Assembly: GCA_026396275.1 (NCBI GenBank) | Contig: JAPLXC010000011.1 | Coordinates: 1-48,296, forward strand | Direction: 5' to 3' | DNA: 48,296 nucleotides | Origin: Candidatus Moraniibacteriota bacterium | Lineage (GTDB): Bacteria > Patescibacteriota > Minisyncoccia > Moranbacterales > JAPLXC01 | Part shown: one piece after another, positions 20,225 through 45,005 of the stretch | How positions within the stretch are numbered: the first letter of the stretch is position 1 | How the letters are laid out: every line of letters begins with the position of its first letter | Position numbers and translations under genes: made by a program | Notes under the pieces: model-generated | The model's database searches: none | What the model was told of the DNA's origin: nothing | Seen by the model: the letters and a program-made list of their open reading frames with translations, nothing else

Positions 20225-20258
20225 TCCGCCTCGGCAAGGACGCCTCGGACGAGACGGG
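20225..20258. mobile_element. 34-bp GC-rich hairpin insertion
   Basis: Absent from the intact tRNA; minus strand folds as CCGTCTCG/CGAGGCGG with an inner stem. Confidence 0.7.
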
Positions 20259-20265
20259 CCGCTTG

Positions 20266-20284
20266 CCTGTCCGCCTTTGACGGA
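20266..20284. mobile_element. 19-bp CCTG-tagged hairpin insertion
   Basis: CCTG-TCCGCCTTTGACGGA; absent from the intact tRNA. Confidence 0.7.
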
Positions 20285-20301
20285 GCTACTCCCCAAAATA
20301 C

Positions 20302-20327
20302 TAAAACAAGCATTGCTGCTTGTTTTA
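20302..20327. terminator. Terminator-like hairpin downstream of ftsX
   Basis: Perfect 11-bp stem TAAAACAAGCA/TGCTTGTTTTA, 4-nt loop. Confidence 0.6.
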
Positions 20328-20375
20328 TCGTATCTCAAAATATGCCAAAAATCAACTTTAAGCTCTAGCTTTACC

Positions 20376-21296
20376 TTACACTTTCAGATATCTTCTAATC
20401 GCAATAAAACCACTGACTATTCCCAAAATTATTCCCGACGCGAAAAGGAACAGCGCGATCAGCCCGAAATACTGGAAATAAAGCGATTCCACACTCGCTC
20501 CAGCCATAATTTTTTGGATAATGGGATCCGTAAAAGCAACAGTGATAAAAAGCAAAAGAAGCGCGCCGACGGCGGAGAAAAGTCCATATAATATCCCTTC
20601 GAAGACATACGGCATCCGCACATACATGTTGGAGGCGCCAACGAGGCGCATAATTTCAAATTCCTGCCGGTGCGAATAAATAGTCAGACGAATGGTATTA
20701 AAGGTAATCAGCACAGCGATAATTATAAAAATGGATCCCAGCACGAACCCGACTCTTTCCGCGAGGCGTATCAGATTATTAAGCCGTTCAATAGCCGTCC
20801 TGTTTTTTTCATAATTAATCCGGCTTATCTCCTCTCGAAAATTCGACTGCTCAATAGCTTGAGCGATGATTCCGTATTGTTCCGACTGATGCGCCCTGAT
20901 GACAAGGGCTGCCAGCAAGGGGTTCTCCCCTATTTCCTCCAGCGCCTGGGTAATGGAAGGGTCATTGTTTCCGCTGGCCAAAAATTCTTTGAGCGCTTGA
21001 TCTTTCGAAACATAATCAATTGATTTAATTTCCCGATAGCCAGTGAGTTTATCTTTGATTTCCAGAATTCTTTCTTCTTTTACCTCTGGATTAAAATAAA
21101 TACTGACGTTTATCTTGTCCTCAACGCTTTTCAAAATGGAGTCGGTGGAAATCCCGACTAGAATAGTAATGCTCAAAATATAAAGGGAGATGGTCAGGAT
21201 GCTGACTGTCGCAAAACTCAGCCAGCCGTTGCGGTAAAAATTTTTCAGCCCTTCTTTAAACGTTCTCCAGAGTTTTAATAGCTTTGTGCGTTTCAT
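20376..21296 (-). CDS. ftsX: Cell division permease FtsX
   Basis: RN.WLS, NTIRLTIYSHRQEFEIMRLVGA; overlaps ftsE stop. Confidence 0.93.
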   Translation of the reverse strand: MKRTKLLKLWRTFKEGLKNFYRNGWLSFATVSILTISLYILSITILVGISTDSILKSVEDKINVSIYFNPEVKEERILEIKDKLTGYREIKSIDYVSKDQALKEFLASGNNDPSITQALEEIGENPLLAALVIRAHQSEQYGIIAQAIEQSNFREEISRINYEKNRTAIERLNNLIRLAERVGFVLGSIFIIIAVLITFNTIRLTIYSHRQEFEIMRLVGASNMYVRMPYVFEGILYGLFSAVGALLLLFITVAFTDPIIQKIMAGASVESLYFQYFGLIALFLFASGIILGIVSGFIAIRRYLKV

Positions 21297-21973
21297 ATTG
21301 CGTATTTTCCTTTTTTATGATCTCTGATAATTCTTCCTCTGTCCATGGCCACTACTCGCCGGTTAATTTTATCCACGATGTCCTTGTTGTGAGTGGCCAG
21401 AAGCACGGTAGTGCCCAAGCTGTTTATCTTGAGAAGCAGCTGAATGACATCCCAGGAGGAAATCGGATCCAAATTTCCCGTCGGTTCATCGGCAATAATG
21501 ACCAGTGGCCGGTGAACCAGGGCGCGGGCAATTGAGTTTTTTTGCTGTTCCCCGCCAGAGAGCTGCCAGGGATATTTTTCCATTTTGTCGCCCAATCCCA
21601 CGATATCCAGAATGCTGGGAACTTTTTCCGCAATTTCTTCGGCTGGTTCCCCAGCTACCTCAAGCGCGTAGGCGACATTTTCAAATACGGTTCGCTGAGG
21701 AAGAAGTTTAAAGTCCTGAAAAATCGTTCCGATGTTGCGGCGATAATAAGGAAGATGCCTTTTCTTGATGGTATCCAGTGGCCGGTCATTGAAATAAACC
21801 TGCCCTGAAGTCGGCTGCTCTTCGGCATAAATTAGTTTTAGCAGGGTGGATTTTCCCGCTCCGCTTTGTCCGACAATGGAAACGAATTCTCCCTGTCCAA
21901 TTTTAAGGTTAATACCCTCCAGGGCGATAAAATCGCCGGGAAATATCTTTGAAACGTTTTCAAATTTAATCAT
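21293..21973 (-). CDS. ftsE: Cell division ATP-binding protein FtsE
   Basis: [36 protein letters not shown]; upstream of ftsX. Confidence 0.93.
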   Translation of the reverse strand: MIKFENVSKIFPGDFIALEGINLKIGQGEFVSIVGQSGAGKSTLLKLIYAEEQPTSGQVYFNDRPLDTIKKRHLPYYRRNIGTIFQDFKLLPQRTVFENVAYALEVAGEPAEEIAEKVPSILDIVGLGDKMEKYPWQLSGGEQQKNSIARALVHRPLVIIADEPTGNLDPISSWDVIQLLLKINSLGTTVLLATHNKDIVDKINRRVVAMDRGRIIRDHKKGKYAI

Positions 21974-21988
21974 ACTGATATTATTTTA

Positions 21989-23084
21989 TCACCAATGTTC
22001 TCTTGCCGCAAACCGAAGATACGCTTCAGTAAACTCATTTAATTCCCCGTCCAGCACTTTTTCCGGATTAGCGGTCTCATACTTTGTCCGATGGTCTTTT
22101 ACTAATTTATACGGATGGAGCACATAGGAGCGAATTTGATTTCCCCACTCGGCGCTTTTGAACTCTCCCCTTAATTTATGCTTTTCTTTTTCTTGGTCTT
22201 CAAGATATTTTTGGTGAAGTTTGGCGGTAAGCACTTTCATTGCCTGTTCTTTATTCTGCGTCTGGGAGCGCTCGTTTTGCATGCTTACGACAATGCCGGT
22301 GGGAAAATGGGTAATGCGCACGGCGCTGTCGGTTTTATTTACGCTTTGGCCGCCGGCGCCCGAAGATCGGTAAGTGTCTATTTTAAGATCTTTATTGCTT
22401 ATTGCCACTTCTTTTATTTCCCCGATTACCGGCAAAACCTCTACTAATGCAAAAGATGTCTGGCGAAGATTATCAGCGTTAAATGGGGAAAGCCGGACCA
22501 GCCGGTGGACGCCGGCCTCGCTTTTCAGGTTTCCATAAGCGTAGGGACCTTCGATTTCTGCTGTTGCGCTTTTTATCCCCGCCTCCCCTCCCCGTGATTC
22601 ATCAAGAATTTTTGCTTTAAAATTATTTTTCTCCACCCAGCGGAGATACATCCGAAGAAGCATTTCCGCCCAGTCCTGGGCGTCTACTCCTCCGGCGCCG
22701 GCGTGAATGGACAGAATCACATCGTTTCTGTCATAGGATCCTCCTAAAAGTGCCTGGAATTCAAGCTTATTTATTTTCTTTTCTAAATCCGAAACCTGCT
22801 TTTCTAATTCATCACGGTCTTTTTCTGAAGCCGCGATACTCAAAAGTTCCTCAAGTTCTTTCAACTGATTTTCCAGTTTTTCCAGTCCTCCAACTTCATC
22901 CCTGAGTAATTCTAGCTCTTTTAATATCTTCGCGGCTTTTTCCCGATCATTCCAAAAATCCTTATCCGCGCCAATTTTCTCTAAGTCCGCGATTTTCCGC
23001 GTCTTTCCGGAAACATCAAAGACAGTCCCGCAAAAGCGGGAGTTTATTCTTGAGTATTTGAAGTTTTTCTTGGAGCTCTCTCAT
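21989..23084 (-). CDS. prfB: Peptide chain release factor 2 with programmed +1 frameshift (22 codons, then CTT TGA at 23021-23016); ~364 aa
   Basis: SPF and GGQ motifs; upstream mini-ORF MRELQEKLQILKNKLPLLRDCL ends CTT TGA; internal SD-like GCGGGA; +1 frame open. Confidence 0.95.
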
Positions 23085-23112
23085 AAGCCAAATAATAACA
23101 AGAAGGTTCTAT

Positions 23113-23853
23113 TTAATCAAGTAAGAGAAGTGCAAACATTAATCCGATTCCTAAGATGAAAGTGATTAATTGCCAAAATGATTTTTTCGGTTCCGTATCT
23201 TTGTGAAGCTCCGGAATCAAATCAGTGCTGGCAATATAAATAAATCCTCCGGCGGCGAAAGGAACAAGAAAATTAACCAAAAAACCGACTTGCCCACTTA
23301 TGGCCAGTACTAACAATGCTCCGGCTACTGCCGCCAGAGCAGTAAGAAAATTAAATGCCAAGGCCTTTAATCGTGAAAATCCTCCGTAGACCAGCGAACC
23401 AAAGTCCCCCACTTCTTGGGGAATTTCATGAAAAACTACCGCCAGTGTGGTAGCAATACCGACGGGGATACTAACCAGAAAACTCGCTGCAATTATCAAG
23501 CCATCAATGAAATTATGCAATGTGTCTCCAGCCAAAATAATATAAGAAAACGGGTGGGGATGTTCGGCAGAAGCAACCACGTGGCAATGCCTCCAGTGAA
23601 TGAACTTTTCTAATATAAAAAATATAATAATACCGGATAAAATATAAAGAGAAACGTGCAAAGGAGCCGTATTTCCGTAGGCCTCCGGAATAAGATGGAT
23701 AAAAGCGTCACCGAGCAGCGTGCCGGCGGAAAAACTCACGAGATAAATTAAGACCCGAGCTAATTTTTTCTGATCAAGAGAAAAAGTAAAAATTCCGACG
23801 AGCGAAATTAAGCTGATAATTATGACTGACGATAAGGTGTAAAGCCAAACCAT
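23113..23853 (-). CDS. ZIP-family divalent metal transporter
   Basis: GDAFIHLIPE, HNFIDG, HEIPQEVGDF. Confidence 0.92.
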   Translation of the reverse strand: MVWLYTLSSVIIISLISLVGIFTFSLDQKKLARVLIYLVSFSAGTLLGDAFIHLIPEAYGNTAPLHVSLYILSGIIIFFILEKFIHWRHCHVVASAEHPHPFSYIILAGDTLHNFIDGLIIAASFLVSIPVGIATTLAVVFHEIPQEVGDFGSLVYGGFSRLKALAFNFLTALAAVAGALLVLAISGQVGFLVNFLVPFAAGGFIYIASTDLIPELHKDTEPKKSFWQLITFILGIGLMFALLLLD

Positions 23854-23861
23854 GAATCAGG

Positions 23862-23947
23862 TTGTAGCTTGTTAGCTTGTAGCTTATTAGATACTTATAA
23901 AAGCTGTTAGGAATCTAAGATGCTAAAAAGCTAAATCCTAAAAGCTA
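23862..23947. repeat. 7/8-bp periodic TAGCTT / AAGCTA tract in inverted arrangement
   Basis: TTGTAGC TTGTTAGC TTGTAGC ... GCTAAAAA GCTAAAT CCTAAAA GCTA. Confidence 0.7.
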
Positions 23948-24466
23948 TTTTAAATAATTCTTAATCAACTCGATATGATCTTCTTCCGCTTGTGAAAGCG
24001 CGGTGAACAAAATTTTTATGTTTTGCTCCTCCGCTTCTTGCATAAACTGCTTATACAAATTAGCTGCGTTTTCTTCTAGGACTATCGTCTTTTTGAAATT
24101 CTCAATATCTTCGTCATCGCAGGATTCTTCGCCAATCACCGGCCGTTCGGTCTGAAGCAACTTCGTTACTATTACCGCGTGCTCCATTTCTACTTTAGCC
24201 AAGCGCTTATACATTGCTTTTATTTCGTAGGATTTGGCTTTCCCAGCCATGCAGGTATAAATAGCAACAGCTCTTATTTCAAGATCATAAGTTGCTTTAA
24301 GATTCTTAATAGACTGCTCGCTTAAATCAATTTTTTCATTGACTATCGGCTTAGCTTCGCTACCAGGTTTGATAAAATTTTCTCTCGCTCCGCAAAAAGG
24401 GCAATTTTTTGGCTTCTCTAAGCCAATATACGCATCACCGCATATTTCACAGATGAATGTTTTCAT
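23945..24466 (-). CDS. Rubrerythrin-family protein (N-terminal rubredoxin-like CxxC/CxxC plus ferritin-like domain)
   Basis: CEIC...CPFC; EMEH and EEDH ExxH motifs. Confidence 0.85.
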   Translation of the reverse strand: MKTFICEICGDAYIGLEKPKNCPFCGARENFIKPGSEAKPIVNEKIDLSEQSIKNLKATYDLEIRAVAIYTCMAGKAKSYEIKAMYKRLAKVEMEHAVIVTKLLQTERPVIGEESCDDEDIENFKKTIVLEENAANLYKQFMQEAEEQNIKILFTALSQAEEDHIELIKNYLK

Positions 24467-24505
24467 AAGCTCCTACAAATTACAAATTATTTAAGCGTGA
24501 TAATT

Positions 24506-24537
24506 TTTACTACAGTATACTGAAATACTGTAGTAAA
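24506..24537. promoter_or_regulatory. 13-bp perfect inverted repeat upstream of the rubrerythrin gene
   Basis: TTTACTACAGTAT-ACTGAA-ATACTGTAGTAAA. Confidence 0.4.
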
Positions 24538-24576
24538 TTACTTTTAATTAAAGTGCATTGCCCCGCCAGATCTTTG

Positions 24577-24649
24577 AGCCCACGGTCAGGATTGAACTGA
24601 CGACCTATGCGTTACGAATGCATCGCTCTACCAACTGAGCTACGTGGGC
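24577..24649 (-). tRNA. tRNA-Thr(CGT)
   Basis: GCCCACG/CGTGGGC acceptor stem, anticodon loop TTCGTAA, T-loop TTCAATC; CCA not encoded. Confidence 0.95.
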
Positions 24650-24667
24650 AGTTTAATCATTATAACG

Positions 24668-25573
24668 CTATTTTTTACTTTTATCAAGAAGTTCCTTCCA
24701 TCTCTCATCCACCATTCCCTGAATCTTTTCAATGACCTTCTTATTTTCCGGCTTAAATAAATGCTTGAATCTTCCCTGGGTTTTCAAAAATTCTTCCACC
24801 GGTTTCGGACTTTTAGGTAAGTAATTAATTACGTATCTCCTTTTTTCTATTTCATAAAGCGGCCAGAAATTGGTTTCTGTTGCCAGCCGGCCGACATTCA
24901 CGTATTGCGAAGTGGGAAATTTCCACAAATTAGTGCAGGGCTGAAGGACCAATAAAAATGCCGGTCCTTCTGTCGCTAAGGCCTTTTTAGCTTTTTGCTC
25001 TAAATCTTCAAGATAAGCCACATTGGCTTGGGCCGCGTATTTCACGTGATGGGCATCCACAATTTGCATGATATCTTTCCGGGTGAGTTCATTTCCGATA
25101 TCATGCACTCCAAACGGCGTGGTTTCTGTTGAAGCGCCGTATGGCGAGGCGCTTGATCGCTGGCCACCGGTGTTCATATAGCCCTGATTGTCATAGCAAA
25201 CATAAAGGAAATTATGACCTCGCTCCAGCGCGCCGGAAAGTGATTGCAGGCCAATATCGTATGTTCCACCATCGCCGGCAAAGACGACAATTTTAGCTTG
25301 TCTCTTTACCTTTCCTTTTTTTAGTAGCACCTTCTGGGCAGATTCTATTCCTGATGCAGTCACTGCCGCGTTTTCAAAGGCGTTGTGGATATAAGGTACT
25401 CTCCAGGCAGTATATGGATAAAGCGTTGTAGTTACCTCACCACACCCGGTAGCATTGGCTACAATTACCGGCTTATCGGTTGCCCCAAGAACCGTTCTGA
25501 AAATCGCCGGAATTCCGCATCCGGCGCAAGTGCTGTGCCCGGGAGCCAATTTTTCAGTTAGTTTTTTGTTCAT
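24668..25573 (-). CDS. porB: Pyruvate:ferredoxin oxidoreductase beta subunit
   Basis: CAGCG, NATGC, GDGG...DIGLQ, YDNQGYMNTGGQ, PC. Confidence 0.92.
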   Translation of the reverse strand: MNKKLTEKLAPGHSTCAGCGIPAIFRTVLGATDKPVIVANATGCGEVTTTLYPYTAWRVPYIHNAFENAAVTASGIESAQKVLLKKGKVKRQAKIVVFAGDGGTYDIGLQSLSGALERGHNFLYVCYDNQGYMNTGGQRSSASPYGASTETTPFGVHDIGNELTRKDIMQIVDAHHVKYAAQANVAYLEDLEQKAKKALATEGPAFLLVLQPCTNLWKFPTSQYVNVGRLATETNFWPLYEIEKRRYVINYLPKSPKPVEEFLKTQGRFKHLFKPENKKVIEKIQGMVDERWKELLDKSKK

Positions 25574-25582
25574 GAGATTCTC

Positions 25583-25615
25583 TACGAATTACGAATTGTG
25601 TACGAATATACGAAT
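25583..25615. repeat. TACGAAT x4 module (2 units, 4 nt, unit, 1 nt, unit)
   Basis: Exact copies at 25583, 25590, 25601, 25609. Confidence 0.92.
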
Positions 25616-25620
25616 ATCGC

Positions 25621-26829
25621 TTAATTTTTATTTCCTATATATCTAATTTCACCGGCTTTATCTCCATCAGCTAAATCTTCAAAAACTTCTTCAATATCTT
25701 TTTGAAAAATTTCCCGGCCGCCAAGACCGTAAACGTAGGATTGTATAAAGTATTTTGTATCATGTATAAAGTATGATTTATTTTTATTTATACTTGATAC
25801 TTGATACATGCTATTTAATACTTCTTGATAAATTGGCGGGTGAGTTCCCGGCGAAAGCGCGCGGTCTAAAACAGCAATACCCTTGGCGTTTTTGATAACC
25901 CTGGCAATCTCTTTATAAGGAAACGGGCGAAAGAGCTTGATTTTCACCAATCCCGCTTTTATCCCTTGAGAGCGAAGATTGTCTGCTGCCACTTTTATCG
26001 TCCCGGCAGTCGAGCCCGCCGCGACAATAACATAATCCGCAGTTGCGACCCGATAACTTTCCAATAAATCATAATGCCTTCCGGAAATACGCTTAAATTC
26101 AGCGGCAATCTTTTGATATTCTCCAAAAACGTTTTGCATCGCTTCTTCCTGGCCTTTTTTGAATTCAAAATAAGAATTGGGAAGTGCCACCGGTCCGAAA
26201 GTCACCGGATCGGAAATATTCAAAAGATATTTTTCCGGCTGGTATTCCCCGACAAATTTTTTTACGATATTGTCCGGCAGAATCTCCAAATTTTCCACGC
26301 TATGCGATGTAATAAACCCATCCATTACAACCATTACGGGAAGTTTCATAATTTCTGCCAGTTTCATGCCGATCAGGGTATTATCATACGCTTCCTGGAC
26401 ATTCTCCGAAAAAATTTGAATCCAGCCGGCGTCGCGCGCTCCCATAACATCACTGTGGTCGCAGTGGATATTAATCGGAGCGGAGAGAGCTCGGGCGGAA
26501 ACCAGCATCAGAATCGGAAGGCGAAGGCCGCTGGCGATATAAAGAACTTCATTCATTAGGGCCAATCCCTGGGAACTGGTCGCTGTCACCGTGCGTGCTC
26601 CCGCAGCCGACGCACCCACGCAGGCGCTCATCATAGAATGTTCCGATTCCACCGGAATGATTTCTGTGCCTACTAACGCTTCAGCCTGAAATTTAGCAAA
26701 GGTCTCAATAATCGGTGTCTGGGGAGTGATCGGATAAACCGGCATCACATCCGGATCAATCTGCCGCAGGGCCTCGGCCGCTGCTGCTCCACCCGTCAAC
26801 GCTACACGTTTTTTAGTATTATGTATCAT
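25621..26829 (-). CDS. porA: Pyruvate:ferredoxin oxidoreductase alpha subunit
   Basis: YPITPQT, VESEH, TATSSQGL, YGLGGR. Confidence 0.93.
   Translation of the reverse strand: MIHNTKKRVALTGGAAAAEALRQIDPDVMPVYPITPQTPIIETFAKFQAEALVGTEIIPVESEHSMMSACVGASAAGARTVTATSSQGLALMNEVLYIASGLRLPILMLVSARALSAPINIHCDHSDVMGARDAGWIQIFSENVQEAYDNTLIGMKLAEIMKLPVMVVMDGFITSHSVENLEILPDNIVKKFVGEYQPEKYLLNISDPVTFGPVALPNSYFEFKKGQEEAMQNVFGEYQKIAAEFKRISGRHYDLLESYRVATADYVIVAAGSTAGTIKVAADNLRSQGIKAGLVKIKLFRPFPYKEIARVIKNAKGIAVLDRALSPGTHPPIYQEVLNSMYQVSSINKNKSYFIHDTKYFIQSYVYGLGGREIFQKDIEEVFEDLADGDKAGEIRYIGNKN
25743..25807. repeat. Inverted heptamer tract inside porA (5 x GTATnnn, then 3 x nnnATAC)
   Basis: Read directly from sequence. 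Confidence 0.85.
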
Positions 26830-26840
26830 GTACTAGTAAT

Positions 26841-27116
26841 TTATTCTTTAATCATTACTATCGCCTTTTGCGGGCATTCTGCTGCACAAACCCCGCATCC
26901 TTTGCAAAAATCGTAATCAATTTCCGCCACTTTTTTATTCTTTGCTGCTTGTCGCTTATCGCTTGCCGCTAATTCTATAGCTGCTTCCGGACAATATTTA
27001 ACACACGTGCCGCAGCCGACGCACTTTTTTTTGTTCACTACTGGCTTCATATACCGCCAATTGCCGGTTCGCGGAGCTTTTTCTATGTTGTGTTTTATGA
27101 CTGCATCTTGTTCCAT
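26841..27116 (-). CDS. porD: Pyruvate:ferredoxin oxidoreductase delta subunit (2x[4Fe-4S])
   Basis: TGNWRYMKP, CVGCGTC...CP, CKGCGVC...CP. Confidence 0.93.
   Translation of the reverse strand: MEQDAVIKHNIEKAPRTGNWRYMKPVVNKKKCVGCGTCVKYCPEAAIELAASDKRQAAKNKKVAEIDYDFCKGCGVCAAECPQKAIVMIKE
26944..26971. repeat. Four 7-bp nnnGCTT units inside porD
   Basis: GCTGCTT GTCGCTT ATCGCTT GCCGCTA. Confidence 0.8.
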
Positions 27117-27121
27117 GTGTT

Positions 27122-27183
27122 TCTTTACTAATTACGAATTTATTTACTAAGTATATTCGTACTTGATTAGTAATTCGTAAAGA
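27122..27183. repeat. Inverted TACNAAT / ATTNGTA heptamer pair filling the porC-porD spacer
   Basis: TACTAAT TACGAAT ... ATTAGTA ATTCGTA. Confidence 0.85.
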
Positions 27184-27756
27184 TCAAATCGCGTCATATC
27201 CTTCCTGAATCGCTCTTACATTTTTCTCTGTCATTTCTTTCCCGATCTTCTTTTCAAAAATTTTTCTAAACTCGTGAGTTATACTTTCCAGTTTGACTAC
27301 CTCGGTAATCTGAACAATTTTCCCCAGGACTACCGAATTGGTATTCGGCTGGCCAATGACTGCAAGCGCCAGTCCCGTCGCGTCAATGGGATAAATTCTC
27401 CCTTGAAAGTTCTTTACCATTTGCGCTATTTCTTCTCTGTTTCTCTTAGTATTAATTATTAATGACTCGTGGCGGTCCAAATTTTCCGCTACTTTTTCAC
27501 TTCCTAAAAGAGTTTCATCCAAAACTACCACCGCGTCCGGGTCAATTACCGGCTCGTGAGTCCTGATTGGTTCGGAAGAGACGCGAACATAAGCTCTCGT
27601 CGGAGCGCCACTTCTTTCCGGCCCGAAAAAAGGGAAGGCCTGAACATATTTTCCCTCCCTAACTGCTGCTTGAACAATAATTTCAGCAGCGGTTTTGGCT
27701 CCTTGTCCCGCTCGCGCAAAAAAGATAATTTCAAAAGTGTCTTTGTTAAACTTCAT
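27184..27756 (-). CDS. porC: Pyruvate:ferredoxin oxidoreductase gamma subunit
   Basis: RAGQGAKT, FGPERSGAP, IDATGLA. Confidence 0.92.
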   Translation of the reverse strand: MKFNKDTFEIIFFARAGQGAKTAAEIIVQAAVREGKYVQAFPFFGPERSGAPTRAYVRVSSEPIRTHEPVIDPDAVVVLDETLLGSEKVAENLDRHESLIINTKRNREEIAQMVKNFQGRIYPIDATGLALAVIGQPNTNSVVLGKIVQITEVVKLESITHEFRKIFEKKIGKEMTEKNVRAIQEGYDAI

Positions 27757-27764
27757 GATTTCCC

Positions 27765-27878
27765 TACTAATTACTAATCATATACTAATATACGAATAAA
27801 TAAATTATAACATAATTGCCTTAAAATTTAAAATATACGCTAAAAATTAGTATATTTGTATGTGATTAGTATTTAGTA
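27765..27878. repeat. 33-bp imperfect inverted heptamer modules enclosing an extended -10 (TGTTATAAT, minus strand)
   Basis: TACTAAT TACTAAT cata TACTAAT a TACGAAT ... ATTAGTA t ATTTGTA tgtg ATTAGTA TTTAGTA. Confidence 0.85.
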
Positions 27879-27883
27879 GACAT

Positions 27884-27918
27884 AACAAAAGAGGCGGGCA
27901 CTTTGATTTCCCCGCCTC
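27884..27918 (-). terminator. Intrinsic terminator downstream of the DsbA-like gene
   Basis: GAGGCGGG/CCCGCCTC stem followed by TTTTGTT on the minus strand. Confidence 0.65.
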
Positions 27919-27948
27919 CTGATAGATATTACTGAAAAATGATCTTGC

Positions 27949-33909: not shown

Positions 33910-34338
33910 TTACAATAAACTGATCTGCCTCTCCTTTTCATCTAATGCTTCATTCACCAGCTTGTCAGCCACTTTATTTTTTTCCCGGGGAATATGAGAA
34001 AAAGTAACTTTGCCAAAATCCAGCATCAAATTCCAGACAGTTAAGAACAACTGCTGAAGTTCCGGCTCTTTTACTTTATACTCATGGTTAAGCTGTTTGG
34101 TGACGAATTCGCTATCCAGAAAACACGCCACCTCTACTTTCCTTGCTTTTTCCTTGCTGATAACCTGCTTGATTTTCCGAAGTCCCAAAATCACAGCTTC
34201 GTATTCCGCCTCATTATTGGTCTTTTCGCCGATAAAGTGGCCGTATTGCTTATGAAGTGTTTCGATGTAAACTCCTACCGCCGCCGGGCCGGGATTGTCG
34301 CGCGATCCCCCGTCGGTGTACATAATTATCTTTTCCAT
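33910..34338 (-). CDS. rnhA: Ribonuclease HI
   Basis: YTDGGSRDNPG, TNNEAEY, DSE, HIPRE.N..AD. Confidence 0.92.
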   Translation of the reverse strand: MEKIIMYTDGGSRDNPGPAAVGVYIETLHKQYGHFIGEKTNNEAEYEAVILGLRKIKQVISKEKARKVEVACFLDSEFVTKQLNHEYKVKEPELQQLFLTVWNLMLDFGKVTFSHIPREKNKVADKLVNEALDEKERQISLL

Positions 34339-34600: not shown

Positions 34601-34611
34601 AAACAAACTTA

Positions 34612-37537: not shown

Positions 37538-37572
37538 ACCTATACTATAATACAATCCTTCCTAAATTATCT

Positions 37573-38613
37573 TCAGCCGGAGAGATTGATAAAATCCAAA
37601 AGTTTTCCGTCAACGGAATAAACTTTTAGCGTAATCTTTTCTCCATTTATTTGAACTATCGCATAATGCTTTCCCTGATAATAATATTCAACCACTCCGG
37701 CGCGTGGAGCTTCATAGCTTTCCACATCAGTGTTAGCTACCATAATTTGATAGATATTGCCTATTTTTTTGCGGCTGTAAATATGCTCATGGCCGCAGAA
37801 AACTGCGGTTACATCATATTTTACAAGTATATCCCAAAGCGCGTCGCGTTCCTTTTCGTACGCATCCAAGCTTTCACCGATATTCGCGGCTACTGGAAAA
37901 GCGGGCTCGTGAAAAGACACAAAAATATTTTTTCCCTTGCTGGATTCCAAATCCTTTTCCAGCCAGTCGCGCTGGGTTGAATTAATAATACGCTCCACCG
38001 GTTCTTCGCTGTCCAGGACCACGAAGTGAGAATTTTTGAAGTCAAAAGAATAAACTTTTTCACTAAATCCCGCTGGACCGTTAAGGGGAAGATCAAAATA
38101 ATTTTGCCAGACATTTTCCATTTCCGGAAACGCAACGCGATCATGATTGCCTACCACCTCATATGTCTTTGAAAGAAGTGGACCCATTACCTTTTTCCAA
38201 CTGCCAAATTCATCTTCGCAATCACTTCTGGTATCACAGCCAGAAATTAAATCTCCAACGGTGAGAACTAAATCCACATTTTTTTCTTTTATTCCCTTAA
38301 CAGCTTTCTGAAGACCCCCGTCAGGATCATTTTCTTTAAAACTCCTGGTATCACCAATAACTGCGAAGGAAAAGGAATCAGGGCTAGTTTGCAGTTCCGA
38401 ATCAGCCGGATCATTCTTCGTCTCCTTTTCAGCTTCAGAAGTAACCATATCGGATTCTTTTGCTTCAGGTTCTTCGGGCAAATTATTTGAGGGATTGGAA
38501 ATCTCAACAGTCCTGTTTCTCCCGATTTGCCACTCGGCAAATAATATCCCACTGCTAACCGCTCCCAGGGCCATAAAGAGAATAGCGAGAGTGATAATTA
38601 GATACCTCTTCAT
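37573..38613 (-). CDS. Membrane-anchored calcineurin-like metallophosphoesterase
   Basis: GD.R, GDL, GNHD, H.P, GHEH; N-terminal TM. Confidence 0.88.
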   Translation of the reverse strand: MKRYLIITLAILFMALGAVSSGILFAEWQIGRNRTVEISNPSNNLPEEPEAKESDMVTSEAEKETKNDPADSELQTSPDSFSFAVIGDTRSFKENDPDGGLQKAVKGIKEKNVDLVLTVGDLISGCDTRSDCEDEFGSWKKVMGPLLSKTYEVVGNHDRVAFPEMENVWQNYFDLPLNGPAGFSEKVYSFDFKNSHFVVLDSEEPVERIINSTQRDWLEKDLESSKGKNIFVSFHEPAFPVAANIGESLDAYEKERDALWDILVKYDVTAVFCGHEHIYSRKKIGNIYQIMVANTDVESYEAPRAGVVEYYYQGKHYAIVQINGEKITLKVYSVDGKLLDFINLSG

Positions 38614-38672
38614 ATCCTTAATTATAGCAGAAATTTGTGCTATAATGTATTTGTAATTTATAATAGAGACGT

Positions 38673-39152
38673 ATGATAATAAAATTAATCTACACGCTTT
38701 TTTTGGCTCTTCTTATCGCCCTTTTTGTGGGGCTGGGCATTGATGCTTTTTATCCGGGACCGGAAGCTCCCCAATATCCGCTGGAACTTGACGCGACAAA
38801 GCCCGGCTGTGAGGAAACCGCTGAACAAAAAACCATAAGGGATGATTTTAATAAAGCTCAAAAAGAATTTCAGGAAAAATCCAAGCCCTACAACCGGAAT
38901 GTTTCAATTATTTCCTTGGCGGCGGCTATTATTATCTTAATTTCCAGCTTGACTCTTCTTGCGAAAATCAAAATGATCGCCGACGGGATACTTTTAGGCG
39001 GGGTTTTCACCACCGCTTACAGCATCATCCGGGGTCTGATGAGCGCGGATACAAAATTCCGGTTTCTCATAGTCACTGTTGGTTTGATAATCGCCCTTAT
39101 CCTGGGCTACATAAAATTCATCCGCTCTAAAGACAATCTTCAGAAAAATTAA
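38673..39152 (+). CDS. Four-TM hypothetical membrane protein
   Basis: Hydrophobic segments; TATAAT 8 nt upstream of ATG. Confidence 0.8.
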   Translation: MIIKLIYTLFLALLIALFVGLGIDAFYPGPEAPQYPLELDATKPGCEETAEQKTIRDDFNKAQKEFQEKSKPYNRNVSIISLAAAIIILISSLTLLAKIKMIADGILLGGVFTTAYSIIRGLMSADTKFRFLIVTVGLIIALILGYIKFIRSKDNLQKN

Positions 39153-39286
39153 TTTTACGCAAACGAAAAACACTTCAAAACGCAGAAAACGCCATTTAAG
39201 GTGTTTTTTCAAATATTCATCTAGCAATATGTTATAATAATGATAAGAACAAAAACTAATAAAACAAATAGAAAGGCAGGTGAATT

Positions 39287-39919
39287 ATGAAAAAATATAT
39301 TATTCTGGGAATAGCTTCTTTTGCGGTATTGCTTCTGGCTGGTTGCGGAACGCAAACAAGTAAAACAACTCCGACCGTCAATTTGACTCCGGAGAAAAAA
39401 GTGGCTTTAAGCGTGGAAGGAGGAAATTGCACTACGAATACAAACTGCGAAACAGGACTAAAGTGCATAAGCAATAAATGCTCATCCGGAAAGGTCGGCT
39501 CGGTTTGTGCAACATACAAAGATTGCAACACTGGTCTTTACTGCGTAAAATCAGTTTGTTCCAATCCCCCGTCATATTCAAAATATTTCAATAAAATTAC
39601 TATCGCCAAAATGAAAGCGGGAATGCCTCCGAGTCTGAAAAATATCCCTGTCCCAGCCACCGAATTCAATGCAGCTACTGATGCCATAGAAATTGACGTT
39701 GAACCCAAAGCTGGCACAACTGGAGAGTTATATTACGAACTTATCGATTCCACCACAGGACAAACCACTATGTCTTCAGCTGGCAATAAAATGAAAGTTG
39801 ACCCAAGAGGAGGCGGAACTGGATTTGGCATTCCATTCGGAACAGTTGGAGATTTTGAATTGAACATCTATTTCAACAACGAGCTGATTCACACCGTGAC
39901 AGTTAAAATAAACCCATAA
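39287..39919 (+). CDS. Putative lipoprotein with two Cys-rich repeats
   Basis: Lipobox LLAGC; 2 x C-x5-C-x2-GL-x-C-x4-C. Confidence 0.75.
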   Translation: MKKYIILGIASFAVLLLAGCGTQTSKTTPTVNLTPEKKVALSVEGGNCTTNTNCETGLKCISNKCSSGKVGSVCATYKDCNTGLYCVKSVCSNPPSYSKYFNKITIAKMKAGMPPSLKNIPVPATEFNAATDAIEIDVEPKAGTTGELYYELIDSTTGQTTMSSAGNKMKVDPRGGGTGFGIPFGTVGDFELNIYFNNELIHTVTVKINP

Positions 39920-39985
39920 GATGATTTCAAAAAACAAAAACAGCTTCAAAATAAGAGGCTGCTTTTTGTTATCTGATAAGTTTTT

Positions 39986-41356
39986 TTATTTTATTTTTTC
40001 TTCCAATTTCGCTTTCGTCAGCGGTCCGACATAGCCTGTTTGAGAAATGCCATTCTGTTTTTGGAATTCCATAACTGCATTTGTAGTAAGTGGCCCGTAA
40101 AATCCAGTGATATATTGTTTATCCAAAAAACTGAGAGAAATAAGAGCTTTCTGAATATTTTTAATTCCTTCAACTGTTTGGGGATTAAAGTCTTCCGCTG
40201 ACATATTATAGCCAATGTTATTCAGATTTATTTTTTTATCCGCTTTTTCCTTATCAGTATGAGGATTGGTCACGCTGACGGTTCTTTTCCGACTAGCCTG
40301 ATTATCCAATAACTTATTCATACAGAATTTAGCTACAATTTTCTTGCTGGATTTTTTATCTACCGAAAAAGCTTCGTGGTTACCAATTTTAACTTCAGCA
40401 TCACCGTCAAAATGCTTGCCTTTGATTTCAAGTTTCAATTTATCTTTACATAATTTGCTGGTTTGGTCTTCATATTTATAAGCTTTCCAGGAGCTTATAC
40501 TTGCTTTTTCATTTTCATCTTCGTCATCATTTTCTTCTTCTTCAGTTTCGGCAATGCTGGTATATTGGGAAATTGCGAAATAAGAAGCGTGGGAAACATC
40601 AAAAGAGCAACTGCCGCCTATAACGGTACAGTCAATTTCCATAGGATCCCAGCCTTCATCGTTATCGCCGTCATTTCTTGAAAATATATTCAAAATTTGG
40701 TCGTTATATTCCGCGCCAACATGAAAAGTGATGGTGACATTATGGGAAGAAAAAGTCAAATCGTTATCGGGTATCCCGAAACGAAGTTTTAATATAATTC
40801 TTTCATTGTTGGGATCAACGATTTCAGCATACCATTCCGTAAGATCAAATGTTCCGCCTTCTTCAGTTGTTGTAACCACGGTTCCGGACGGAAAAAGAAG
40901 CGAGAAATCTCCGTCTTCGGAATCATAGCTGTATTCCTCGCTAAAAGTAACTGACGAAAATTCAAAATCTTCTCCTTCGCTAGTATAATAAAATTCAAAA
41001 GGATAATCTTCGTCCACATAAATATAAGCGAAAGTGGAATCTTCTCCTTCTTCGGTAGCCGTAATTTCGGCCGTGTAATAATATCCTGGATCCAACGCAC
41101 TAGCAAATGTTATGCTCCAATCTCCATTATTCACTGAATCTAAAGAATATTCAATTCCGTCAATTCCGTTAATTGTCACGGAAATTTCAGCGCTGCTGAT
41201 AACGCCGCTGATCGTTCCTTTGATAAGAGGCGTCGGATCATTGGTTACCATATGATAAGCCGAAACCGAAGGAGCGGCTTTTGCCTTATCCGCAGAAAAA
41301 ACCAAAAAACAGGACAAGAGGAATAATAAAATAAAAAGGCTGCTTATTTTTTTCAT
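39986..41356 (-). CDS. Secreted Ig-like-domain protein with C-terminal peptidoglycan-binding domain
   Basis: Signal peptide; TNDPTPLIKGT; ITGFYGPLT..AV..FQ..NGI..TGYVGPLT. Confidence 0.8.
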   Translation of the reverse strand: MKKISSLFILLFLLSCFLVFSADKAKAAPSVSAYHMVTNDPTPLIKGTISGVISSAEISVTINGIDGIEYSLDSVNNGDWSITFASALDPGYYYTAEITATEEGEDSTFAYIYVDEDYPFEFYYTSEGEDFEFSSVTFSEEYSYDSEDGDFSLLFPSGTVVTTTEEGGTFDLTEWYAEIVDPNNERIILKLRFGIPDNDLTFSSHNVTITFHVGAEYNDQILNIFSRNDGDNDEGWDPMEIDCTVIGGSCSFDVSHASYFAISQYTSIAETEEEENDDEDENEKASISSWKAYKYEDQTSKLCKDKLKLEIKGKHFDGDAEVKIGNHEAFSVDKKSSKKIVAKFCMNKLLDNQASRKRTVSVTNPHTDKEKADKKINLNNIGYNMSAEDFNPQTVEGIKNIQKALISLSFLDKQYITGFYGPLTTNAVMEFQKQNGISQTGYVGPLTKAKLEEKIK

Positions 41357-41558
41357 TTTTCTCGCCCCCTTTTTTTTATTTTACACAATTATTTTACCAT
41401 ATTTTTCAGAGAACGCGCAAATTCTAACCACCAGTGTCATTAATATCAATTGTACGTAAATAATTACTTACCTGAATATATACTCAAGTATATACTTAAA
41501 TACGTATTTAACACTTTCCTGGACTCACCTTGCGATGTTAGCTCTTGAGGCAAGAAAG

Positions 41559-41591
41559 CCTGCCCCGCGGGAGCGTAGCGACTTTACGGGG
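41559..41591. mobile_element. 33-bp CCTG-tagged hairpin insertion splitting a TTGACT...TAACAT promoter-like site
   Basis: Filled GAAAG[CCTGCCCCGC...ACGGGG]TCAAC versus empty GAAAG|TCAAC at 42499-42508. Confidence 0.7.
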
Positions 41592-41637
41592 TCAACTTTT
41601 AGTTACCCACTCGTTGCCCACTTGGGAAAAATAAAAA
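41591..41637. repeat. Direct repeat copy 1 flanking the protease gene
   Basis: 33 identical bp with 42503-42535, similarity extends to ~46 bp. Confidence 0.92.
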
Positions 41638-41657
41638 TGAGCCGTTTTGGGCAAAAT

Positions 41658-42449
41658 TTATTGCTTAGAAATTTTCCAGGTTATAAGTTTGTGAGACAAT
41701 GCCATAGTAGTTCCAGAAGGTATAATCTTTTCTATTCCATTTAAACTTGTTAAACCTTTCTGACAAACAATCCCTACTAACTTTCCTGAATAATTTACTA
41801 CCGGACCACCGCTAGCACCGAAAGTGGAAGCGTTGTCTATCCAGTAAGAAGCACCGTCTATACTAACACTTTTATCTAAAAATTTTGCGCTGATTTTTAT
41901 ACCATGTACAGCACCAATCATACCGCTTTTTGCCATAATCAGATTCATCGAAAATTTAAAATGATTTTCGATTTCTTTATGTTTAGCTACAAGTTCAGCA
42001 TTTCCTTCATAATTTAAACTCTTATTAAAATCTAAGGTAGGATTTATTTCATCAGGAAAACCAGCCATTATTACATCCTCCCCAACATCTGGTATACTTT
42101 CTTCCAATTCCATAAATTCGAGACCCTCTAAATTTTCAATTGGTCTTAAGATTGCCAAGTCTATCCCTAACGGCTTCACAACTCCAGAAGTCCCGACATC
42201 CAATGACACATCAGAAAAATCAATTGTATAAGGTATTGGTTGGAGGCTCCCATCATTATCAAAGGTATTAACGATAATAAGCGGCTGTTTTAATTGCTTA
42301 TATTTTTCTATAACATGGTTTGCTGTAAGTATAAAGCCTTCGCTATTGATTAAAATACCTGTTCCTGCACTAATATAATTATCTCCATCCTTTAATAGAA
42401 TCTTTCTTGTTACGTTTTTTATTTTTTTACAAATTTCAATTTTATTCAT
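41658..42449 (-). CDS. Trypsin-like serine protease (start revised to ATG 42449)
   Basis: TANHV, DLAIL, GASGGP catalytic triad; no signal peptide. Confidence 0.88.
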   Translation of the reverse strand: MNKIEICKKIKNVTRKILLKDGDNYISAGTGILINSEGFILTANHVIEKYKQLKQPLIIVNTFDNDGSLQPIPYTIDFSDVSLDVGTSGVVKPLGIDLAILRPIENLEGLEFMELEESIPDVGEDVIMAGFPDEINPTLDFNKSLNYEGNAELVAKHKEIENHFKFSMNLIMAKSGMIGAVHGIKISAKFLDKSVSIDGASYWIDNASTFGASGGPVVNYSGKLVGIVCQKGLTSLNGIEKIIPSGTTMALSHKLITWKISKQ

Positions 42450-42502
42450 ATACTTTTTAAAAAAATTAATAACCTTCCCCACTCTATTTCGCTTGCACGA
42501 AA

Positions 42503-42548
42503 GTCAACTTTTAGTTACCCACTCGTTGCCCACTTAGGGAAATAAAAA
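42503..42548. repeat. Direct repeat copy 2
   Basis: GTCAACTTTTAGTTACCCACTCGTTGCCCACTT. Confidence 0.92.
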
Positions 42549-42565
42549 CCCCTGCTTGGGGCGGG

Positions 42566-43504
42566 TTATTGAATCTTATTTCTTATTTTGTTCCAGAGCT
42601 CAAGTTCATCAGAGAGTAATTGCCTAACTACTAAATCCGTAATATTTCCGATAATTGCAAACTCAGTGTGAATTTTAAAATCATCAAGGTTCAACCATTT
42701 GTCTTGCGGATATTTTTCAGGAAAAATATGCGCGATTAAGTGTCTATGAGATTGAGTTATCCATTTATAAAAATATCCAAATGCTTTTCCGTCTAGCTCT
42801 TTGTATTTAGGATAAGCAATAGCCCAAACTAGCGTATCTTGATCTATTTTTTTTTGAGGCCTTTTAATTTCAGGATATTTTTTTATATACTCATCAGCAT
42901 CTCTAAATGCCTCTCTTCTTTCATAAAAACCTTCTAAAATTTTATAAAAACAAAAGAAACGATAGAACGGACTAGGACTATTTCTTCCCTCTCTATACAA
43001 TGAGAGAATAGCTTTAAACTTATCATCAAATTCTAGCCCCGCTGGTAGTGCAAATTCCTCTGGAGCAGCATATTGTGGAAAAGCTTCTCGAGCTGTTTGA
43101 TGTTTTAAATCAACTACAACAACACCGAAAATGGAAAGTGGTGAAGCAGAAGCAAATGTTATAAAACTAATTAAATTAGAAAGGTTATTGTATGTTCTTA
43201 CCAGAGCCTCGATAGAAGAATTTGATTTTATTTTAAATCTTATGCGCCCCAATCTTTCTTCTTCATTTTTTTCAAAGAGCATTGTTATTTCCTCCTTCTT
43301 ATCTCCTTTTATCTCGGTTTGAGTTTTAGTCTCATTTTCTTTTAACACAAATGGGCTGTCAAATTTTTTCCTTCGGTCTGGATCTTCCAATGTAAAAATT
43401 ACTTCGAATTCTCTTTTCGAAGTGTCTTTTTTTGAAGCATCCGATTTTATTAAATCGCTATCCCCTTTATCCCAGAGGGCATAGCCAAAATGGGGAATCC
43501 ACAT
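42566..43504 (-). CDS. MauJ/ApeA-like protein with C-terminal HEPN-type RxxxxH motif (start revised to ATG 43504)
   Basis: LYREG...YRFFCFYKILE and RHLIAH; TATAAT 6 nt upstream of ATG. Confidence 0.6.
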   Translation of the reverse strand: MWIPHFGYALWDKGDSDLIKSDASKKDTSKREFEVIFTLEDPDRRKKFDSPFVLKENETKTQTEIKGDKKEEITMLFEKNEEERLGRIRFKIKSNSSIEALVRTYNNLSNLISFITFASASPLSIFGVVVVDLKHQTAREAFPQYAAPEEFALPAGLEFDDKFKAILSLYREGRNSPSPFYRFFCFYKILEGFYERREAFRDADEYIKKYPEIKRPQKKIDQDTLVWAIAYPKYKELDGKAFGYFYKWITQSHRHLIAHIFPEKYPQDKWLNLDDFKIHTEFAIIGNITDLVVRQLLSDELELWNKIRNKIQ

Positions 43505-43581
43505 ATCATTATTATATCCCAAAATAAAAACAAAAAACACCATTTAAGGCGTCTTTAAAAAAATACTAACCTATTTTGTTT

Positions 43582-43800
43582 TTACCTATCCTCCACTCCC
43601 TGTCTTGCTCCGCTCATCGTATCTTGGGTTTTATTGTATGATTCGACAACTAAAAGTATAACTATAAGCAAAAAAATGCCAAGAATTATTTTCCAAACTA
43701 TTGATATTCCTCTTTTGTTTTTGCCCAGCCACTCTCCGCAATGTTTACATTTAGCTGAGTCATCCTGTATTTCTTCGGCACAATACGGGCATTTTTTCAT
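43582..43800 (-). CDS. Zinc-ribbon plus single-TM small protein
   Basis: CPYC...CKHC followed by a hydrophobic helix. Confidence 0.75.
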   Translation of the reverse strand: MKKCPYCAEEIQDDSAKCKHCGEWLGKNKRGISIVWKIILGIFLLIVILLVVESYNKTQDTMSGARQGVEDR

Positions 43801-43952
43801 TTTTTTACTTTATCCAATTACTGAATAAAATGTACCACAAAAATGACGCCTAGGAAAGTGGAGCAGACCAACACAAAAAACTCCTAGAATAAAAGTTTTT
43901 TATACAAAAAGTCCGCTTGGGACGAGATTAGAAAGTTGACCCATCGGCATCC

Positions 43953-44705
43953 TCACTTATCCCAAGGATAAACCAATGCTCCCTTGTCAGTAATTGTTTT
44001 ATATAAAGTACCAAAATATATTTCATTTAATCGGTTTATACTCTTTTTGTCCTCAACAATTTTCTTTTTCCATTTTCTTCTGATGTCCTTATACACCAAC
44101 CTATATAATAGTTCAAGCTTTTCTACGAATTGTTCGTCCTTCGATCTAGCTAGCGTATCTATCATAGAAAGCCTATCGATATCTTCATCAGTATACCTTG
44201 TGAAATGAACGTGCGACCCGCGAACCTTAATGTATCCGCTAAAAGCTGAGGTTACCAAAGTGCCCAATTTCTTAGTTGCCGAAGAGACTTTGGATTTAAT
44301 TTTTGATTTTTTATAAGCTCGTTCAATAATAGTTAAATATGCTAACATTCTTTGTTGTAAAATATAAATCTCATTTAAATAATTTTCAATGTGGTATTTA
44401 AAATAGACATATTTTGATATTCCTTTTTTTTGAAAAGGAAAAACATCTATATATATCGGGATGTTTTGTAATGCTTCATAAGAATTAGCTATCTCAGAGA
44501 ATAGTCTAAATAACTTCATAGCAAATTCGTCCTCTCGGCTCAATTTTTTTTGCGTCAAAGCTTTTGGTCCGTCTCTGTCAAATAAAACATTTCCCAAAAC
44601 TTCAGCCAGCTCCTTATCCTCATCTTTGTGGCTATCTATCCTATCTCTCGAAAAATCAAATACTAAATCAGCATATTGTTTAGTTTTACCAGTATAAAAA
44701 TCCAT
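43953..44705 (-). CDS. HEPN-domain protein (Cthe_2314-like)
   Basis: KYHIENYLNEIY and RGSHVH (Rx4H); family from recollection of motif, unverified. Confidence 0.55.
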   Translation of the reverse strand: MDFYTGKTKQYADLVFDFSRDRIDSHKDEDKELAEVLGNVLFDRDGPKALTQKKLSREDEFAMKLFRLFSEIANSYEALQNIPIYIDVFPFQKKGISKYVYFKYHIENYLNEIYILQQRMLAYLTIIERAYKKSKIKSKVSSATKKLGTLVTSAFSGYIKVRGSHVHFTRYTDEDIDRLSMIDTLARSKDEQFVEKLELLYRLVYKDIRRKWKKKIVEDKKSINRLNEIYFGTLYKTITDKGALVYPWDK

Positions 44706-44832
44706 TAAAATATAACTTCAAAAAAAATTTAACATTCCTACTTTTTGTATTATACCAGATTTTATCGTTCTGAAATAAAATGTTGAGAAATAAAAACACA
44801 AAAACAGGGTTTCCCCTGCTTCCATAATTTTG

Positions 44833-45005
44833 TTCAGCATCGTAATTTTATGCGATTAGTCCCCGCCCGCCATCGCTACGCTTCAGGCGTTGCGGGCAGG
44901 CTTTTAAAGTCTATGCATACCCTTGTATAAAAGATACAACTATCAATTACTTGGCTTGATTAGGCCTTTGACGTGTCTTGAATAAATTCAAATTTCGAAA
45001 AGATG
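44833..45005 (-). ncRNA. Structured RNA candidate, copy A (interrupted by a hairpin element)
   Basis: Homologous to 46607-46745 with three compensatory base-pair changes; followed by terminator-like hairpin 44795-44820; strand inferred. Confidence 0.6.
44866..44900. mobile_element. 35-bp CAGG-tagged hairpin insertion
   Basis: CCCGCCATCGCTACGCTTCAGGCGTTGCGGG-CAGG; absent from copy B. Confidence 0.65.

Follow-up and report, generated by a model that had tools for sequence, protein, structure and literature searches.

Introduction

How tiny palindromic repeats spread without a dedicated transposase has been a standing question since the CGTC repetitive extragenic palindromic (REP) sequences were described as having none (Di Nocera et al. 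2013, PMC3733652). In Neisseria, SsnA, a protein of 94 amino acids (aa) that consists of a GIY-YIG domain only, binds its own hairpin repeat solely as single-stranded DNA (ssDNA) and cuts a few nucleotides (nt) away; the mutants Y6A, Y17A and E64A lose cleavage, the enzyme is inactive on RNA, and homologues of SsnA are paired with cognate repeats of their own (Chenal et al. 2025, PMC11893778). This 2025 Ssn work demonstrated that a GIY-YIG nuclease reads such hairpins and left their movement unshown. Here we analyzed contig JAPLXC010000011.1 (48,296 bases; the entire contig is called the window below) from a small-genome bacterium of ~40% GC, whose gene homologues carry the names Moranbacteria and Parcubacteria, that is, the Candidate Phyla Radiation (CPR) or Patescibacteria. 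This 48-kb contig contains four GC-rich hairpin elements, A, B, C and D, and the gene for a small GIY-YIG nuclease. An original prediction for this DNA had joined A, B and C into a single REP-like family defined by a CCTG/CAGG tag and a following target C. We observed instead that the four inserts belong to several hairpin-repeat families and not to one CAGG-tagged family. Judged by comparison with related loci, these GC-rich repeats are probably, on balance, the DNA partners of small single-domain GIY-YIG nucleases residing in tRNA genes, in a system resembling Ssn/SRM.

The likeness to Ssn/SRM extends over protein and repeat. The window nuclease has 86 aa (80-95 aa in its family), is GIY-YIG-only and carries Tyr, Tyr and Glu at the same positions (Y6, Y17 and E63, compared to Y6, Y17 and E64 of SsnA). 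Beside the nuclease gene, and dispersed at other places as well, there are hairpin repeats of 20-50 nt (D at no fewer than 15 loci; C at 11-12 loci and in many solo copies), each nuclease clade has a hairpin type of its own, and D has a GTC head (C-CGTC-TC). One difference is that gene and hairpin here lie in duplicated tRNA genes, whereas Chenal et al. (PMC11893778) never mention tRNA. Split-tRNA hairpins are described neither there nor in Di Nocera et al. (PMC3733652), and our searches turned up no publication on Patescibacteria cassettes that combine GIY-YIG and tRNA.

Other systems match in part. The CGTC REPs (Neisseria dRS3, Rickettsia RPE-4/6; PMC3733652) are likewise short palindromes, without a dedicated transposase, found between and inside genes, and D starts with CGTC. 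However, the CGTC of D lies in a predicted stem and not in an unpaired tag, a CCA tail is missing, and B and C have no CGTC; A has CGTC at nt 3-6, also within the predicted stem. The GTAG REPs and REPINs, which come with a REP-associated tyrosine transposase (RAYT), share size, GC-rich imperfect palindromes, dispersal and the absence of target duplications (Messing et al. 2012, PMC3479197; Di Nocera et al. 2013). In contrast, no RAYT is present here, the linked gene encodes a GIY-YIG nuclease, and none of the four elements ends in an unpaired GTAG: the ends read CCCG.../...CGGG or ...CAGG, those of D CCCGTCTCG...GGCGGA, and GTAG occurs only in the loops of B and C. Phage T4 SegB is also encoded by a GIY-YIG gene among tRNA genes and promotes inheritance of its own region, but it is a multi-domain homing enzyme for double-stranded DNA, without hairpin repeats or split tRNA copies (PMC2330249). 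In the 86-aa window protein the catalytic domain stands alone, with no DNA-binding domain of the SegB or I-TevI type beside it. The small dispersed repeats of the Nostocaceae are reportedly tiny GC-rich hairpin inserts in AT-rich DNA, with no known transposase or target duplication. Yeast mitochondrial GC clusters, too, are tiny GC-rich hairpins inserted into AT-rich DNA with no known transposase and no target duplication (Wu and Hao 2015, PMC4478555). Both, however, belong to other lineages, show no sequence relation to the present elements and have no linked nuclease gene.

Elements A and D split a displaced tRNA-Gln fragment upstream of a GIY-YIG gene

In the 4,474 intergenic bases of the window, which average 34% GC, a value of 75% GC or more over 20 nt is reached solely at the loci of A/D, B and C. 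All four inserts lie where the original prediction had placed them, except that C measures 38-40 nt and not 35. The nuclease gene (19946-20206, minus strand; 86 aa; Pfam PF01541, E = 2e-14) is located directly upstream of an intact tRNA-Gln(CUG) gene, the working copy (19884-19955, minus strand; ARAGORN and Rfam), and the last 10 nt of its open reading frame (ORF) overlap this tRNA gene. On its other side, at 20218-20296 (minus strand), we found a displaced tRNA-Gln 5' end (positions 1-26) that is interrupted by A and D. Without A and D, this segment matches the tRNA-Gln 5' end (19931-19956) at 26/26 positions; the junctions of both elements are unambiguous, and neither has a target duplication. 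Element D, a hairpin of 34 nt (20225-20258, minus strand; CCCGTCTCGTCCGAGGCGTCCTTGCCGAGGCGGA on the gene-sense strand), is inserted after the D-loop GG (G19|T20). Element A, a mini-hairpin of 19 nt (20266-20284, minus strand; CCTGTCCGCCTTTGACGGA on the plus and TCCGTCAAAGGCGGACAGG on the minus strand), is an exact insert between C11 and C12 of the same fragment (GTAGC^CAAGCGG). Compared to shuffled sequences, D folds with z = -1.1, and the stem of A has 4 bp.

To place the elements in a wider context, hairpins were counted in related public sequence comprising GIY-YIG loci, public sequencing runs (X1, X2 and so on) and metagenome contigs of the Joint Genome Institute (JGI); L001 onward denote the fetched loci of relatives and metagenomes. 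Of the four elements D is conserved best, and it is the hairpin that goes with the adjacent GIY-YIG gene. We found it beside such genes at no fewer than 15 related loci. Immediately upstream of the gene it has an identity of 33/34 in L001, L005 and L006 and of 31/34 in L008, while the GIY-YIG proteins at these four loci are only 64-74% identical to that of the window. Hairpins with D-like ends and variable inner stems were found in L004, L007, L010-L014, L019, L030, L035 and L052. The ends are kept (CCCGTCTCG...CCGAGGCGGA), and the inner stem changes in a compensated manner (for example CTCGAC/GTCGAG and CTCGCC/GGCGAG). D-type hairpins always follow the D-loop GG, be it of tRNA-Gln, tRNA-Leu (L030, L035) or tRNA-Asp (L052), and 11 of the 14 best loci have the architecture GGGGAGTAGCCAAGCGG, hairpin, TAAGGCA..., GIY-YIG ORF, intact tRNA-Gln. 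D had originally been considered an untagged relative of the other elements. The label does not fit, since D begins C-CGTC-TCG and so has the CGTC/GTC head known from CGTC REPs and Ssn-related motifs.

The site of A is more variable. It is empty in L001, L005-L008, L010, L013 and one X3 contig; L011 has a longer hairpin with the same ends there (TCCGT...ACGGACAGG), L012 a D-like hairpin, and L009 and L014 have other hairpins. Past D, the tRNA fragment continues into TAAGGCACAAGGTT (window 20207-20224) with the anticodon-stem piece CAAGG. In L001 and L005 the tRNA-Gln anticodon stem agrees with it, and the resident tRNA-Gln differs (ACGGACTCTGG; ACGGA). Given that its anticodon-stem piece fits not the resident gene but tRNA-Gln from other Moranbacteria, the cassette was apparently imported, with one working tRNA retained. 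No contig on record carries the exact GIY-YIG protein of the window, and the window's own genome was detected in two public runs only.

Related arrangements were observed at other loci. L012:10340-10520 contains a full-length tRNA-Gln with hairpins in both D stem and D loop, right after an intact tRNA-Gln. In L002 (4400-4500 and 5150-5210), D-type hairpins are arrayed head to tail, repeating every 31 nt, within a tRNA fragment upstream of the nuclease gene. CAAG, the start of the tRNA-Gln D loop, follows four CAGG-ended hairpins (CAGGCAAG; L061:3342, L150 minus strand at offset 969, window 20259-20269 and L011:6627-6641), which could be carried-over flank or chance.

Element C, a solo member of a widespread family of hairpins

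Element C (44861-44900, plus strand; ~40 nt, CCCCGCCCGCCATCGCTACGCTTCAGGCGTTGCGGGCAGG) is a solo copy of a hairpin family that is dispersed over many habitats. Its fold has z = -1.9 compared to shuffles. A paralogous module without the element lies at 46627-46670, with the shared blocks TGCGATTAGTCC and AGTCTATGCATACCC and with TAAAG in place of C. The predicted empty counterpart was thus confirmed in approximate form: C replaces ~5 nt of the paralogous copy. The whole duplicated non-coding module spans 44851-44972, downstream of a RelA/SpoT-like gene, and 46627-46709, downstream of the 16S gene.

An index of public runs lists one 31-mer of C for at least 14 of them, which come from at least 10 studies and cover groundwater, river, lake, peat, marine sediment and wastewater. 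With 0-4 differences, C was found in at least 12 distinct flanks (contigs of X3, X4, X5, X10 and X15). The matches in runs always span 44862-44897 or 44862-44901, and the X1 and X2 unitigs break at the edges of C. One X15 contig, from a peat metagenome, has C at the orthologous site of a related module.

We then scanned JGI metagenome contigs with the pattern CCCGCCATN{6,30}GGCGTTGCGGGC, in which the supposed tag was left free, and obtained at least 120 loci. Of 123 matches listed, 58 come from contigs with more than 52% GC and resemble random hits within coding sequence; the remaining 65, in contigs of 31-51% GC, have extra conserved ends. Among the matches listed, the 61 unique low-GC copies are conserved for four further bases on the 5' side (C-N-C-G) and three on the 3' side, where conservation ends. 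The family consensus is CNCG-CCCGCCAT-loop-GGCGTTGCGGGC-GGG; the window copy is of a short-loop subtype and has a mismatched outer stem (CCCG...CAGG). Long ORFs contain 19 of the 65 listed low-GC copies, for example in L092, L096, L115, L117, L153, L166, L180, L189 and L193, and L180 and L189 each have two copies within one frame. In L175 (1440-1520) a copy is centered in a 10-bp AT-rich inverted repeat (TTTCACGACC...GGTCGTGAAA), as if inserted into a pre-existing palindrome.

The arms of C gave no match in viral contigs. A looser loop pattern gave 8 matches there, of 49-61% GC, which are not clearly family members. The loop TCGCTACGCT recurs in unrelated GC hairpins, because viral contigs of 49-54% GC carry it in hairpins with GC stems (L083:1343-1375 and L086:8062-8085, for example CCCGCCG-TCGCTACGCT-CGGCGGG).

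Hairpin types follow the nuclease clades

We aligned 43 homologues of the window nuclease, in which Y6, Y17, R27, H31 and E63 are invariant, and used the alignment as the query to collect 452 relatives in species-representative genomes; the best 80 loci were fetched. The catalytic domain fills residues 4-72 of the 86, PF01541 is the sole domain, and the closest solved structures are the UPF0213 proteins 1ywl (E = 3e-9) and 1zg2 (1.5e-8). A tRNA gene lies within 400 nt on the same strand in 58 of the 80 fetched loci.

The C family is also physically linked to such genes. A copy lies 5-223 nt (mostly 5-31 nt) from a GIY-YIG gene in 11 of the 65 listed low-GC matches, compared to 0 of the 58 high-GC matches. 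Among the 107 nearest ORFs to C copies, GIY-YIG accounts for 12 and the next Pfam family (TPR) for 3; it is the sole Pfam family enriched there, and Y1 transposases are absent from the 25 most frequent families. That the GIY-YIG gene is the relevant partner, as had been suggested, is borne out by this enrichment and by the conservation of D upstream of the gene. The C hairpin adjoins GIY-YIG genes in L040, L043, L106, L111, L142, L149, L164 and L172; L040 and L043, with the hairpin upstream of the gene, were fetched via the protein and not via the hairpin. The cassettes of this clade have the same order as that of the window: first a tRNA 5' fragment with the hairpin inside it, then a spacer of 10-20 nt, the ORF and an intact tRNA. 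Their hairpins are found in either orientation at 7|8, 9|10, 13|14, 16|17 or 19|20 of tRNA Pro, Thr, His, Leu or Gln.

In a tree of 104 members, 13 of the 14 D-linked genes, including that of the window, fall in one clade and 10 of the 11 C-linked genes in one starred clade (99/84). A further hairpin type, CCCGCC-N3-4-GGCGGG, accompanies tRNA-Cys-linked genes of Ignavibacteriota. The clustering of hairpin labels on the tree was matched by 0 of 200-500 shuffles, on a tree that contains near-copies, has few alignment columns and includes C loci found through the hairpin. Nuclease clade and hairpin type go together; the probable cognate nuclease of C belongs to a sister clade and is not encoded on this contig.

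In the C family, CAGG is a variant of the outer stem and not a guide tag

In the window, A, B and C do read hairpin, CAGG and then C, as had been stated; as hairpins, A has only a 4-bp stem and B folds no better than shuffles. We assessed the supposed tag in the C family. Among the matches listed, 52 of the 61 unique low-GC copies have G after GCGGGC and 9 have A, which puts CGGG at 85% and CAGG at 15%. At the position that follows, no base is preferred (C 21, G 19, T 12, A 9). Outer-stem pairs are C-G in 44 copies, C.A in 8, T.G in 5 and T-A in 1, and fully compensated CCTG...CAGG copies occur in L130 and in contigs of X3 and X4. CAGG is therefore a variant of the outermost stem triplet in this family and not a REP-style guide tag. 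With neither a shared tag nor a flank preference in the censused C family, the idea of a single REP-like family with a CCTG/CAGG tag and target C fails. What stands of it are small REP-like hairpin inserts without target duplication. We also tried to read the strand of the C family from its wobble pairs; at 8 C.A to 5 T.G the asymmetry is not clear.

A general CAGG tag was rejected as well: in a set of 1,107 hairpins with perfect stems from 1.1 Mb, CAGG is 2.3-fold enriched behind the stem, much as other GC-containing tetramers are. After hairpins of the form YCCG...CGGR it occurs in 10 of 540 cases, ~6-fold over expectation, a modest and partly redundant excess. One-sided CAGG is found on several other hairpin bodies, namely in A, B and C of the window and in copies in L011, L019, L047, L051, L058 and L061.

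Contrary to the original assumption, the elements are also not demonstrably one sequence family. Local alignment gave p = 0.14 for A and B and p = 0.05 for A and C, and only B and C are significantly related; the idea that A is a deletion derivative of B (p = 0.14) was dropped. A proposed half-element at 24559-24572, after tRNA-Thr (24576-24649, minus strand; ARAGORN and Rfam), has no fold (0 kcal/mol) and shares ~8 nt (a CCCCGCC run), which is chance level. Separately, a perfect palindrome, CCTGCCTGCCGGCAGGCAGG, was observed in three unrelated CPR genomes (L030:2812-2827, L051:3447-3466 and L061:7641-7660).

Element B is a degraded relative of the C family

Element B has 33 nt (41559-41591, minus strand; CCTGCCCCGCGGGAGCGTAGCGACTTTACGGGG on the plus and CCCCGTAAAGTCGCTACGCTCCCGCGGGGCAGG on the minus strand). 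Its empty site (gaaag|tcaac at 42503|42504) was located by repeat search and sequence at 42498-42548, together with the second copy of a 46-nt direct repeat. Relative to this copy, B is an exact insert with a 1-nt ambiguity. As had been proposed for the first two tagged inserts, A and B are hence exact and free of target duplications. The direct repeats (41591-41636 and 42503-42548, 91% identical) bracket a trypsin-like protease gene.

B shares the TCGCTACGCT loop and the GCGGG(G)CAGG end with the C family, and its arms are shortened, which accounts for its poor fold (z = +0.2, no better than shuffles). None of 2000 shuffles reached the local alignment scores of B with C and L153. From these sequence features, B is probably a decayed derivative of the C family. 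The 31-mer index search with B listed no runs. A second copy with 3 differences and different flanks was found in run X1, and a 192-nt X1 contig (Logan) joins 41553 to 42501 without B and without the protease gene. This suggests that a strain lacking both exists; the shorter side of the contig measures 24 nt, and we take it as a hint and not as proof.

Discussion

We favor the reading that these hairpin repeats are DNA partners of tRNA-borne GIY-YIG nucleases. The anatomy of the cassette and the physical linkage, observed directly like the conservation and dispersal of the hairpins and their match with nuclease clades, deserve more confidence than this overall reading. In the local cassette, a tRNA-Gln 5' fragment split by D and A, the GIY-YIG ORF and an intact tRNA-Gln would form one unit. 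By analogy with SsnA and its NTS, the nuclease may bind its folded hairpin (D-, C- or A-type) in ssDNA and nick nearby. Break repair or recombination could then copy the hairpin to new sites, with or without the nuclease gene and the spare tRNA 5' part. The targets would preferably be the 5' third of tRNA genes, and also intergenic DNA and tolerant parts of genes, and the copying would involve neither a transposase nor a target duplication. Such break-repair copying is possible, with the balance tilted slightly against it. More tentative, and to our minds rather unlikely, is the broader proposal that hairpins and bare GIY-YIG genes make up a transposase-free mobile system whose home site is the loop-coding 5' third of tRNA genes. 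If true, it would explain the RAYT-less spread of CGTC-type REPs, of dRS3/NTS-like repeats and of CPR mini-hairpins, and such a cassette, homing to tRNA genes, would leave a working tRNA in place every time.

Several results weigh against the partner reading. A is tied to B and C by a 9-nt end alone (p ~0.05-0.14). The C-family set was gathered by a fixed pattern whose arms could not vary, and near-copies aid the clustering. About 80% of C copies have no nuclease gene inside the fetched flank, and the window nuclease belongs to the D clade, so that C and B are without a visible partner on the contig. The published SRM sequence, HGTCWYN(0-2)YYVSBRHN(0-5)WNVSBRGN(0-2)RNCYNB, finds no match in the window, and 1.17 Mb of related loci contain just 8. 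With the SRM sequence unmatched and the nuclease at most a candidate for CDD cd10448 (GIY-YIG_unchar_3), we class the system as one working like Ssn/SRM and not as a proven member.

Alternatively, the hairpins could be selected, immobile cis-elements of the host, such as terminators, RNA-stabilizing or RNA-processing hairpins or protein-binding sites, in which case the empty sites would represent deletions or independent origins. B and C are indeed intergenic, each is followed by CTTT, and the 3' part of B was scored as a weak terminator in a terminator scan; C also occupies the orthologous site in the X15 relative, and the stems show wobble and compensated pairs. We nevertheless regard this as unlikely: units are found in both orientations, in displaced tRNA fragments and in long ORFs (19/65 listed), near-identical 36-nt copies lie in unrelated flanks across habitats, and the neighboring genes have AT-rich terminators of their own. 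Another alternative is a REP/REPIN-like family with CAGG as guide tetranucleotide, mobilized in trans by a tyrosine transposase of the HUH type (RAYT or IS200/IS605 TnpA) whose gene would lie in another part of the genome. REP size, imperfect-palindrome form, the absence of target duplications, one-sided CAGG tails on unrelated hairpin bodies and the ~6-fold excess after YCCG...CGGR hairpins count in its favor. However, no transposase, including Y1, RAYT and IS200 types, is found among the 47 contig ORFs (the lack of a visible RAYT had been noted originally), nor does Y1 rank among the 25 most frequent families of the 107 ORFs beside C copies. In addition, CAGG is the minor variant of the C family, its flank has no preference, its enrichment over all hairpins resembles that of other GC-containing tetramers, and GTAG is confined to loops. 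A mobile family of this kind is quite unlikely.

A and D could also be parts of a working RNA, a split tRNA-like leader that, processed like an intron or acting as a tRNA mimic, controls or marks the nuclease mRNA. Fragment and hairpin always lie on the sense strand immediately upstream of the ORF, and the T.G pairs of the D stem are acceptable on that strand only (CCGTCTCG/CGAGGCGG) and compensated to C-G in L013 and L014. The near-palindromic C-type hairpins, however, occur in either orientation within cassettes, the fragments have no tRNA 3' half, and Rfam and ARAGORN detect no tRNA there. With SsnA inactive on RNA as well (PMC11893778), we consider a working RNA very unlikely.

The partner reading offers concrete pairs of enzyme and substrate for testing. 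Beyond the described systems, we observed that distinct hairpin families each follow a GIY-YIG clade, that hairpin-linked GIY-YIG genes reside in split tRNA genes, and that a hairpin of 36-40 nt is nearly unchanged across many habitats, between and inside genes. For CPR genomes, broken tRNA copies and in-frame inserts are sources of annotation errors.

Other features of the window

The 16S gene lies at 46831-48296 on the minus strand. About 47 ordinary genes are present on the contig, for example those for glycosyltransferases, ABC transporters, pyruvate:ferredoxin oxidoreductase (PFOR) subunits and RF-2. A stand-alone ORF of 142 aa at 33910-34338 resembles RNase H and RVT_3.

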